Program-made: the position numbers and the translations under genes
Source: a virus
Virus record (IMG/VR): IMGVR_UViG_3300045988_147738
Span: 102,432 to 166,431 of that record
Length of the DNA stretch: 64,000 nucleotides
Reading direction: 5' to 3' (one strand)
Shown here: positions 53,281-54,275 of the stretch, piece after piece
Layout: each line of letters begins with the position of its first letter
Numbering within the stretch: position 1 is the stretch's first letter
Notes under the pieces: model-generated
The model's database searches: none
What the model saw: the letters and a program-made list of their open reading frames with translations, nothing else
Told to the model about the DNA's origin: nothing

Positions 53281-54275
53281 AACATTTAAATGGTACGACT
53301 ACTGGGACTCGAACCCAGACTATTACGGTTTATGGAGCTAAATATAAGATTTGAACTTATATCGTGAGCCAATCTTCATTACTAATATTTTTAATTTCAG
53401 ATTTTTTTGTAGGTAAATTATAATACTAACACCATTTTCGGATAGCATTATCACTTACTCCATATTTTTTACCTAGCGATAAAAATGACTAATTTCTTAT
53501 TTCATTTTTTAAATTTTCTCTTGTAGGACGATCAACTTTTCGTTGAACTATTTTTGCACATTTTATACAATATAAACTATTCGTTTTAATAGTTGTTCCA
53601 CATATTGAACAAATTTTTTCTTGATTTAAGGTATTAAATTTTAATTTTGTTAAATAATTTGAATTTCGAAGAGGATAAATTTCAGTGCTTAAAATTTTAA
53701 TTTGACCTAAATTAATAGCACTAATTGTTCTCTAAGAAACATTAAACTATTTAGCAATTTCGGTTTCAGATAATGAACTATTTTTTAATAAATCCACTAT
53801 TTTTTGTAAAGCGTCTTCTGAAATTTTAGAATTTACACAATGAGAATCTTGACCTCCTTGTGTTAAATTATAACCTATATCTGAATTAGTAGCATCCAAT
53901 AATTGAATATACTATTTTTCTTTAATGTCTAATTCATTTATAGCACATTCTTCTAAAATTTCAAATGTAAAATTTTCGATACCATATTTACGAATAGCTT
54001 TATATAAAGGAGTATTATATTGACCATTATTTGGATTAAAAGCTCCATTTCGATGAGCCATCCAGCGTTTGCTAATATTAACACTCTATCCAATATAAAT
54101 TTTTTGATTAATCTTATTAGTAATTTTATAAATTCCAACCATTATTTTCTCTCCTAGTATTTTTTTCTACTAAATATAAAAAATAAGGGTTCGAATTTAA
54201 AAGAAATTGCCCAAATTTTTCCAATTAAACTAATTTAACGAAGACCGTTGCCATATCCTCTTAGGCGATAGTCGC
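53281..54275 (-). tRNA. tRNA (Arg-UCU or Ile-UAU, depending on junction) interrupted by a ~920-nt insert carrying a GIY-YIG homing endonuclease
   Basis: 5' part at 54241–54275: GCGACTA-TC-GCC-TAAGAGGATAT-GGC-A-ACGGT-CTT(C). 3' part at 53281–~53322: (T)AA-ACCGT-AATAGT-CTGGG-TTCGAGT-CCCAG-TAGTCGT-A-CCA. Acceptor and anticodon stems pair only across the insert, which starts CGTTAAATTAG… and ends with the same ATATAAG-TTCAAAT-CTTATAT hairpin plus a TTAGCTC-CATA tail as the small inserts. Confidence 0.5.
53358..54132 (-). CDS. GIY-YIG homing endonuclease (I-TevI-like, with C-terminal DNA-binding domain) inside the tRNA insert; about six in-frame TAG codons
   Basis: MVGIYKITNKINQKIYIG(TAG=Q)SVNISKRWMAH…GIENFTFEILEEC… and C-terminal …KKYGVSDNAIRKWC(TAG)YYNLP… shared with the gene at 60251–60903. 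Confidence 0.6.

Follow-up and report, generated by a model that had tools for sequence, protein, structure and literature searches.

Can a phage tRNA gene that is interrupted within its anticodon by a long, endonuclease-bearing insert still yield a tRNA when the insert contains no ribozyme? Bacterial and phage introns are held to be ribozymes of group I or group II, and protein-dependent tRNA splicing is held to be archaeal or eukaryotic. The question is raised by a tRNA-Arg(UCU) gene in a viral sequence of 64,000 nt (IMG/VR record IMGVR_UViG_3300045988_147738, positions 102,432 to 166,431), which was analyzed as a whole and is called the window below. All coordinates are those of the window, and the features of the split tRNA-Arg all lie on its minus strand; L-numbers (L001, L023, L194 and so on) are labels of comparison loci in public viral and metagenome collections. 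The locus is a phage tRNA-Arg(UCU) gene split between C35 and U36 by a 907-nt mobile intron that does not belong to group I, and we are highly confident in this description: a tRNA-Arg(UCU) interrupted by a tRNA-mimic intron that is mobile and bears an endonuclease gene.

The split tRNA-Arg(UCU) gene

The two strands of the acceptor stem (GCGACTA/TAGTCGT) and those of the anticodon stem (ACGGT/ACCGT) pair solely across the insert, as the initial annotation of this locus had claimed. When the exons were joined, ARAGORN returned a canonical tRNA-Arg(tct) of 78 nt including the CCA, with the 7-nt anticodon loop CUUCUAA; in its intron mode the program independently recovered the same exons, as a tRNA at 53291-54275 that is split by 907 nt. 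The predicted spliced junction reads ...GGUCUUC/UAAACCG..., that is, GGCAACGGUCUUC/UAAACCGUAAUAG. The split that had been annotated was thus upheld in both modes, while the insert, given as ~920 nt, is shorter, and the 3' exon, given as 53281 to ~53322, is real but had been placed ~10 nt too low (53332..53291). Between UCU and UAU, which had both been considered, the anticodon is UCU, because the uninterrupted alleles of a homologous tRNA-Arg in L467 and L468 read CTTCTAA. The gene had also been called the third split tRNA; it is indeed split, but the window has five such genes, namely those for Lys, Gln and Arg with mimic inserts, that for Leu with a group I intron and that for Trp with an unclassified insert.

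The boundaries of the 907-nt insert were set by a rule that holds across the insert family and was validated by uninterrupted alleles (those of tRNA-Lys and of the homologous tRNA-Arg). The split tRNA-Arg is retained in the relative L001/L195 (92% identical), where the changes preserve pairing. Of the five exon positions that differ there, two are in loops and three belong to the acceptor stem: pair 4:69 changes from A-U to G-C on both sides, and pair 1:72 from G.U to A-U. In the closing stem of the intron, pair 2:71 changes from U.G to C-G in L001.

The ends of the insert as a tRNA mimic

The ends of the insert form a tRNA mimic, and the ends of this mimic are the splice junctions. An acceptor-like 7-bp stem begins at the first base of the intron; it is followed by U8, a D-arm-like hairpin, a variable interior, a T-arm, the 3' strand of the acceptor-like stem and NCCA, and the endonuclease-bearing interior occupies the place of the anticodon arm. 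The 7-bp stem is stacked on a 5-bp T-stem, the loop has the form U54 U55 C56 R57 A58, and a 3' NCC(A) overhang follows. The initial annotation had pointed out the hairpin ATATAAG-TTCAAAT-CTTATAT and its tail, which are present (53362..53331); what it had not recognized is that they constitute a T-arm, an acceptor strand and NCCA. The probability that a 7-bp closing stem and a 5-bp T-stem occur by chance at the fixed positions is 1-3e-5 per insert, and all three mimic inserts of the window (Lys, Gln and Arg) have both.

When these three inserts were searched with ARAGORN in tRNA and tmRNA (transfer-messenger RNA) mode, no tRNA or tmRNA was called within them, and "mimic" is therefore the right word. 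A genuine nested tRNA or tmRNA was rejected, given the lack of an ARAGORN match and given that the shortest members of the family (58 nt) are without a cloverleaf anticodon arm.

Uninterrupted alleles and mobility of the inserts

In L194, a genome related to the window at 97%, the syntenic tRNA-Lys(UUU) is uninterrupted and equals the predicted spliced product of the window at 75 of 75 positions; the 112-nt insert of tRNA-Lys is therefore exactly GGUGG...CUCCA between U34 and U35. L023 has an 875-nt homologous insert in a divergent tRNA-Arg, within the same CTTC/G...TCCA/TAA context. Uninterrupted tRNA-Arg genes that are syntenic with L023, identical at 71 of 75 positions and with the loop CTTCTAA, were found in L467 and L468, and the L023-type insert is therefore exactly G1...UCCA between C35 and U36. 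The search for empty sites that had been proposed for this locus was thus successful for Lys and for the homologous Arg, but not for the exact Arg allele, of which no uninterrupted copy was found in viral or metagenome contigs with either UCU or UAU allowed. Four close relatives of the window, L191-L194, carry a different uninterrupted tRNA-Arg(UCU) (9901-9976; GTCCCGTTAGTC...), which resembles phage tRNA-Arg(ACG) and lies at the same position, between tRNA-Ile(UAU) and a symporter gene. Because of this different tRNA-Arg, the intron-bearing gene seems to have come in by replacement of the whole tRNA cassette and not simply by homing.

The Lys and Leu introns of the window are missing from otherwise near-identical relatives. 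Twin inserts with and without an open reading frame (ORF), identical in their ends and exons, were found in tRNA-Arg (875 nt in L023 vs. 68 nt in L357), tRNA-Lys (737 nt in L348 vs. 71 nt in L456) and tRNA-Glu (~607 nt in L185/L458 vs. 58 nt in L416/L450), and one mimic scaffold hosts either a GIY-YIG or an HNH gene. Together with presence and absence among near-identical genomes, these twins support the earlier proposal that the small inserts are ORF-less relatives of a mobile, endonuclease-bearing one.

The family of mimic inserts

The T-arm/NCCA pattern was searched for in public collections, the segment from stem to tail was removed, and the remainder was tested with ARAGORN for a tRNA spanning the junction. 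In this way, 27 distinct inserts with 17 distinct top-half modules were obtained from eight tRNA types on phage and gut-metagenome contigs. Nested inserts were seen at 8 of the 53 viral loci and at 10 of the 120 metagenome loci, with human-gut assemblies making up many of these; no nested insert was present in 120 bacterial or archaeal loci with the pattern, among the matches listed. The boundaries of the inserts always coincide with the ends of the mimic, and the position within the host tRNA varies (Table 1).

Pair statistics were counted directly, the MAFFT alignment having offset the 5' ends by one column. In the 17 modules, three to five pair types were found at every acceptor-like pair, and G53-C61 was invariant. 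Several features that were not imposed by the detector recurred: U at position 8 (26 of 27 inserts), a 4-bp hairpin starting at position 10 (25 of 27, compared with 37% in random sequence), C74 C75 (26 of 27), a complete NCCA tail (21 of 27) and, as read from the listings, A as the first base of the D-loop. Also from the listings, a pyrimidine always precedes the intron.

Inserts without an ORF, of 58-122 nt, occur in the tRNA-Lys and tRNA-Gln of the window and, in related phages, in tRNAs for Asn, Gly, Glu, Ile and Leu. The shortest, of 58 nt, consist of an acceptor stem, a D-arm, 8 nt, a T-arm and NCCA, that is, a tRNA minus its anticodon arm. The Lys inserts of the window (112 nt) and of L021 (68 nt) were found via the T-arm alone, and their closing stems differ by two fully compensatory pairs. 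The small Lys and Gln inserts do belong to the same family as the Arg insert, as had been supposed, the common architecture of their ends being the 7-bp stem, the T-arm and the tail; a homologue of the Gln insert in L458 has the tail CCCA.

The endonuclease gene inside the Arg insert

The ORF in the interior of the Arg insert matches the Pfam family GIY-YIG (PF01541, E 3.5e-9) in its N-terminal domain and the NCBIfam family TIGR01453, "group I intron endonuclease", with 87.5 bits against a cut-off of 56. Helix-turn-helix matches lie at residues 105-143, and a weak Zn_ribbon match, below its cut-off, at residues 172-195. The TAA stop codon falls inside the 5' strand of the T-arm. The GIY-YIG gene of L023, at the same insert position in its divergent tRNA-Arg, is 53% identical, and in GenBank phages the best match has at most 46% identity. 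The I-TevI-like GIY-YIG gene that had been annotated was therefore found by both profile collections; what had been missed is that its reading frame is open only if TAG is read as Gln. TAG is a sense codon in the window, where 65 TAG codons occur in 40 ORFs and align with CAA (Gln) in orthologues. Because genes are open only with TAG as a sense codon, the window belongs to a TAG-recoded phage, and the six TAG codons of the endonuclease gene make its translation dependent on the suppressor tRNA(CUA).

The C-terminal module of the endonuclease (residues 178-261) is common to the PD-(D/E)XK ORF of the tRNA-Trp insert, to the HNH ORF of L025 and to an ORF of L348. It reads ..VSDNAIRKWC.YNLP....EI....EDW..I, followed by the stop, and stands on three nuclease domains: GIY-YIG, PD-(D/E)XK and HNH. 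This distribution suggests that domains have been shuffled among tRNA-targeting homing endonucleases.

In L025 (3600-4740), the HNH gene that ends in the shared module is followed directly by a tRNA-Thr(UGU) of 84 nt. The variable region of this tRNA is unusually long, and its T-arm, ATGAG-TTCAAAT-CTCAT, is the same as in the intron mimics; upstream there is a structured, G+C-rich stretch. Two more GIY-YIG-type ORFs on the minus strand of the window, judged from their N-terminal sequences, are outside tRNA genes: one at 12852-13541, between genes that resemble topoisomerase/gyrase subunits (again from N-terminal sequences only), and one at 59446-60090, between tRNA-Trp and tRNA-Phe.

A proposed splicing route and its candidate enzymes

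The route that we favor, with a probability of about 0.5, is that the mimic is released by RNase P together with a nuclease acting on 3' ends and that a phage RNA ligase seals the anticodon loop. The splice sites would then be set by the intron and not by the host tRNA. The 5' junction would be an RNase P site, with a G1-C72 stem, an NCC tail and a pyrimidine at -1, and the 3' junction would coincide with the mimic's mature CCA end, at which an endonuclease for tRNA 3' ends would cut; an enzyme of the RNase Z/BN type, one of the RNase E type and a phage enzyme are candidates for this second cut. The tRNA halves would remain paired via the acceptor and anticodon stems, and the cuts would leave a nick in the anticodon loop with 3'-OH and 5'-P ends. 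A phage RNA ligase would seal this nick, and a kinase and a phosphoesterase could heal other end chemistries. At the DNA level, the putative homing endonuclease would spread the intron into intron-less tRNA genes; indirect evidence of this is the varying presence of the introns and the 53%-identical orthologue at the same place in the divergent tRNA-Arg of L023.

The conserved elements of the mimic are those that RNase P and the 3'-end enzymes read: the G1-C72 acceptor/T-arm stack, the T-loop, U8/A14 and NCC. A CCA is encoded in 20 of the 24 tRNA genes of the window, and the mimics of its lineage end in NCCA. The candidate sealing enzyme, a DRB0094-like ligase, scored 26.9 bits with Pfam RNA_ligase (cut-off 27) and gave a sub-threshold match to the DRB0094-type family TIGR02306; homologues of it in Bacillus and Mycobacterium phages bear the annotation RNA ligase. 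The gene is kept in all five close relatives, and the ligase family is present in 380 of 50,697 GenBank phage records and in 15 of 15 Lak megaphage records.

An RNA-repair-like set of genes on the minus strand (24275-28117 and 30004-30801) comprises the phosphoesterase, the Pnkp-like kinase, the ligase and a weakly matched RlaP-type nucleotidyltransferase, homologues of which adjoin insert-bearing tRNAs in L152 and L378. A 509-aa DUF2828/DUF7788 protein is encoded near these genes (38230-39759, minus strand).

Several observations weigh against the RNase P route or against parts of it. The split tRNA and its junctions are known here from DNA sequence alone. To our knowledge, bacteria have no general pathway in which an endonuclease cuts precisely behind a CCA that the gene encodes, and tRNA 3' maturation is usually exonuclease trimming. 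Minimum-energy folding of the isolated inserts favored the mimic only weakly (z -0.7 to -1.9), and the closing stem was missing from the minimum-energy structure of the 985-nt split tRNA; thermodynamic folding is, however, uninformative for such A+U-rich RNAs. Because the detector requires both the closing stem and the T-stem, the percentage of paired positions is circular for these two elements. The Gln clade has the tail NCCU, and one Asn insert ends in UUCA. The ligase family is also found in many phages without known introns of the mimic type, and it was not seen on several insert-bearing contigs, which are short fragments. The endonuclease of the tRNA-Trp insert has the same DNA-binding module, yet that insert contains no mimic. 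Finally, the introns of Lak megaphage tRNAs, which are compared below, have a leader of ~27 nt; RNase P alone therefore cannot define their 5' junction, and a mechanism shared with them might differ from the one proposed.

The last of these points also favors excision, without RNase P, by a dedicated endonuclease of the phage or its host that would read the anticodon stem together with the mimic, much as the archaeal splicing endonuclease recognizes bulge-helix-bulge motifs, with ligation as the following step. We regard this as the strongest competitor, though an unlikely one. No known enzyme accounts for a cut exactly after CCA, the phage kinase and phosphoesterase would be needed only if the ends were 2',3'-cyclic phosphate and 5'-OH, and the window encodes a PIN-PhoH protein and many unannotated ORFs. 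Against it, no candidate enzyme was identified, the conserved parts are exactly the RNase P and 3'-enzyme determinants (G1-C72 stem, T-loop, U8/A14, C74 C75), and the junctions follow the ends of the mimic and not a fixed position of the host tRNA. On inspection, no bulge-helix-bulge was found at the junctions: the 7-bp helix starts with its first pair at the 5' junction, and 4 nt beyond its last pair comes the 3' junction. The junctions lie at 34/35, 35/36 or 36/37 and never at the canonical 37/38 of archaeal and eukaryal introns.

It is less probable still that the insert stays in the RNA, a selfish endonuclease cassette having killed the tRNA-Arg, and that the only role of the tRNA-like ends is to free from the tRNA-array transcript, and to stabilize, either the mRNA of the endonuclease or a small RNA that resembles a tRNA. 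Exon joining has been read here from DNA, and the window allele is dispensable to the lineage, inasmuch as L191-L194 carry a different, uninterrupted tRNA-Arg(UCU); moreover, the tRNA-Trp of the window is interrupted without a recognizable splicing scaffold and has lost its CCA. A dead gene is nevertheless hard to reconcile with exon changes between the window and L001 that all keep the pairing, one of them being fully compensatory. The Gln intron is fixed in the five close relatives, in which no other tRNA-Gln was detected, and the interrupted tRNAs serve the commonest codons for Lys (AAA, 754 of 1068), Gln (CAA) and Leu (TTA), while AGA accounts for 101 of 523 Arg codons. The 58-nt ORF-less inserts have no mRNA to stabilize, yet they sit precisely within intact tRNAs, and mimic inserts occur in eight specificities. 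The pairing-preserving changes, the fixed Gln intron and the heavily used codons argue for removal of the insert at the RNA level.

The insert is not a group I intron

A self-splicing ribozyme is very improbable, be it a group I intron that is much reduced or overlaps the ORF, or a small RNA of a new kind that splices itself. In its favor, the endonuclease falls in the "group I intron endonuclease" family, the introns known from bacterial tRNAs are of group I and lie in the anticodon loop, and the tRNA-Leu(UAA) of the window contains a genuine one. Against it, 53200-54350 gave no match to any Rfam family, RF00028 included, up to E=10, the intron ends in A and follows C35 (group I introns end in G and follow a U), the non-coding part of the insert is 97 + 24 nt = 121 nt (a group I core needs ~200 nt or more), the ORF-less members of 58-122 nt are far smaller than any known self-splicing RNA, and the conserved nucleotides are those of tRNA tertiary structure and not of a guanosine-binding core. 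The intron-final CCA was found in both boundary-validated cases (Lys and Arg). The group I reading was rejected for the lack of a core match, the wrong terminal bases and the small size.

The insert of tRNA-Leu(UAA) is the classical tRNA-Leu group I intron in a phage. It gave a sub-threshold RF00028 match (23.6 bits, E=0.0012), and uninterrupted alleles of the tRNA are present in L192 and L194.

Implications

With the ribozyme set aside and removal by proteins preferred, the inserts, in which an endonuclease of the classic "group I intron" family is carried by an RNA that can be no such intron, might represent a third type of bacterial intron, one that depends on proteins. It would be mobile, endonuclease-bearing and ribozyme-free, and it would persist by imitating a tRNA so closely that RNase P and the 3'-end machinery cut it out of the anticodon, a ligase then rejoining the tRNA; we put this forward tentatively, at somewhat less than even odds. 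If this is true, RNase P is a splicing enzyme, the RNA ligase/Pnkp "RNA repair" cassettes of phages would have a housekeeping role in tRNA splicing, the "enigmatic" introns of Lak megaphages would be accounted for, and selfish DNA would have a new route to phenotypic silence. Standard tRNA finders would systematically overlook, in recoded gut phages, some of the tRNAs in heaviest use (Lys, Gln, Arg, Leu).

Features of the window

The window is A+T-rich and has at least 29 tRNA genes on its minus strand, including the suppressor tRNA(CUA). Five IMG/VR contigs of 128-198 kb are locally 92-98% identical to it. No close relative was found in GenBank phages with the tRNA region or the Lys pre-tRNA as query, and hence no cultured model phage was identified.

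The tRNA-Trp(CCA) gene (60201-61011, minus strand) has a 738-nt insert after A36, TTTGAAAAC...TTAGATGG, the boundaries of which are exact by comparison with the uninterrupted alleles of L191 and L194. It encodes a PD-(D/E)XK endonuclease (PF11645, 4.7e-15) with the C-terminal DNA-binding module of the GIY-YIG protein; no tRNA mimic and no group I match was found in this insert, and the 3' CCA of the tRNA is replaced by CGG. Within the tRNA array, directly downstream of the split tRNA-Arg, lies a full-length sodium:dicarboxylate symporter gene (52083-53285, minus strand; Pfam SDF, 7.6e-91), which is 97-98% conserved in the five relatives. A tRNA(CAU) at 56174-56243 (minus strand) was found by an Rfam match only (35.8 bits). 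Just downstream of it, at 56085-56165 (minus strand), is a tRNA-like stretch that was called by no tool. Its 7-bp stem, AGACGCA/TGCGTCT, is perfect, its D-arm is CCAG/CTGG, and it has the loop CTTCAAA and the T-loop GGGTTCAAATCCC; a motif of similar kind, AAGACGCATCCAGCAA, stands before tRNA-Lys in L021.

Table 1. Positions of the split tRNA-Arg, its mimic insert and the other features discussed (window coordinates unless a locus is named)
Feature	Position	Strand	Remarks
tRNA-Arg(UCU) 5' exon	54275..54240	-	36 nt, GCGACTATCGCCTAAGAGGATATGGCAACGGTCTTC; positions 1-35, ends CUUC = C32 U33 U34 C35
tRNA-Arg(UCU) 3' exon	53332..53291	-	42 nt, TAAACCGTAATAGTCTGGGTTCGAGTCCCAGTAGTCGTACCA; TAAACCGT...GTACCA; U36 A37 A38 ... 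ACCA
tRNA-mimic intron in tRNA-Arg(UCU)	54239..53333	-	907 nt, G1 ... UCCA, between C35 and U36
Intron closing stem, 5' strand GUUAAAU (G1-U7)	54239..54233	-	U2.G71 becomes C2-G71 in L001
U8-A9 spacer and D-arm-like 4-bp hairpin, positions 10-25	54232..54215	-	GUUU-AAUUGGAA-AAAU
T-arm-like hairpin AUAAG-UUCAAAU-CUUAU	53360..53344	-	G53, U54 U55 C56 A57 A58, C61
Intron closing stem, 3' strand AUUUAGC	53343..53337	-	pairs with GUUAAAU
Discriminator and CCA (UCCA), last four intron nucleotides	53336..53333	-	family tail pattern NCCA
GIY-YIG homing endonuclease gene	54142..53357	-	261 aa, 6 in-frame TAG (=Gln); ribosome-binding site UAGGAGAG upstream
C-terminal module sites	53357-53600, 60240-60480; L025 4400-4640; L348 2514-2765		
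Mimic inserts in tRNA-Lys, tRNA-Leu	junction 34/35		
Mimic inserts in tRNA-Arg, Asn, Gln, Gly	junction 35/36		
Mimic inserts in tRNA-Glu, Ile	junction 36/37		
tRNA-Lys(UUU), split U34/U35	42714..42900	-	112-nt ORF-less mimic 42867..42756; stem GGUGGAA/UUCCGCC
tRNA-Gln(UUG), split	47943..48139	-	121-nt ORF-less mimic 48104..47984; stem CGAGAAA/UUUCUCG; tail CCCU
tRNA-Leu(UAA), split U34/A35	44732..43878	-	768-nt insert ending in G; HNH ORF 44479..44033
Suppressor tRNA(CUA)	46959..47030	-	reads TAG codons
ATP-dependent RNA ligase (DRB0094-like), candidate sealing enzyme	26747..28117	-	sub-threshold profiles; homologue annotation
P-loop kinase (Pnkp-kinase-like), candidate end-healing enzyme	25536..25030	-	profile match
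Metallophosphoesterase, candidate end-healing enzyme	25030..24275	-	profile match

Comparison with known systems

The tRNAs of Lak megaphages have been reported to contain "enigmatic" introns, one of which "itself may encode a tRNA", and no mechanism was proposed (Devoto et al. 2019, Nat Microbiol, PMC6784885). Full-text searches of the literature returned no description of tRNA-mimic or RNase P-dependent introns, and this report was the only precedent found; the window inserts are accordingly filed as a variant of the Lak-type phenomenon. Both kinds occur in TAG-recoded gut phages, lie in or beside the tRNA anticodon, vary among close genomes and have no Rfam match; in both, a tRNA-like element (acceptor stem and T-arm) abuts the 3' junction, and a homologous RNA ligase is encoded by both phages. 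They differ in that the Lak introns have a 5' hairpin and a AAAUUAAA spacer, ~27 nt, before a tRNA-like element that does not span the intron, whereas the mimic of the window family starts at intron base 1 and its two ends are both splice junctions. The Lak tails are GCA, GCUA or ACA rather than NCCA, and no endonuclease ORF is reported for Lak, whereas some members of the window family have GIY-YIG or HNH genes.

In Lak-C1 (Prevotella phage Lak-C1, L469, record 440000-489000), CCA is encoded in 1 of 19 tRNA genes, N73 being almost always followed by C and then A or T. The tail of the mimic thus conforms to the style of the tRNA genes in each phage, NCCA here and N-C-A/U in Lak-C1. In intron mode, ARAGORN read the published Lak "tRNA-Tyr" intron case as tRNA-Ser(gct), and the anticodon assignments of Lak introns therefore depend on the junction that is assumed. 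A uniform 3'-junction rule was not obtained for the Lak introns, tails of 1-4 nt being possible according to the assumed anticodon.

Substrates of RNase P and RNase Z that resemble tRNAs occur within longer RNAs, as in the tRNA-like domain of tmRNA, the mascRNA of MALAT1 and mitochondrial tRNA punctuation. In these substrates, as in the window family, distant segments form an acceptor/T-arm with a D-arm analogue and an NCCA-type end, and the module of tmRNA, like that of the ORF-bearing introns, encloses a coding region. Such a module serves to bring the enzymes of tRNA end processing to a transcript that is not a tRNA, which is the use proposed for the inserts. In contrast to the inserts, none of these elements lies inside a tRNA anticodon, and none needs its flanks to be re-ligated. 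In phage T4, the anticodon nuclease PrrC is countered by tRNA repair with Pnkp and Rnl1. The likeness lies in an anticodon-loop nick within a folded tRNA and in phage healing and sealing enzymes (in the window, the candidate kinase, phosphoesterase and ligase); the T4 nick, however, is an attack by the host and not the excision of an intron, and the ligase is Rnl1 rather than the DRB0094-like candidate.

Known group I introns include those of cyanobacterial tRNA-Leu(UAA) and tRNA-fMet, the latter with I-Ssp6803I, and that of phage T4 td with the I-TevI endonuclease. Group I introns have also been described in tRNA anticodon loops of Patescibacteria (PMC13011429). The bacterial group I tRNA introns resemble the window family in being mobile, in lying in the anticodon loop, in carrying a peripheral I-TevI (GIY-YIG) or HNH gene and in having ORF-less derivatives; the window family differs by its tRNA-mimic scaffold and by the lack of a group I core, of a terminal G and of U at the 5' splice site.

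The bulge-helix-bulge introns of archaeal tRNA and rRNA genes, some of which carry LAGLIDADG endonucleases, are removed by the splicing endonuclease and RtcB. In working they are the closest to what is proposed here, being mobile, endonuclease-bearing and ribozyme-free, with a shape that proteins cut and exons that a ligase joins. In the window family, which belongs to bacteriophages, the shape is instead the top half of a tRNA with NCCA, placed inside the anticodon at 34/35 to 36/37 and not at 37/38, and the work would fall to RNase P, a 3'-end nuclease and an ATP-dependent ligase.

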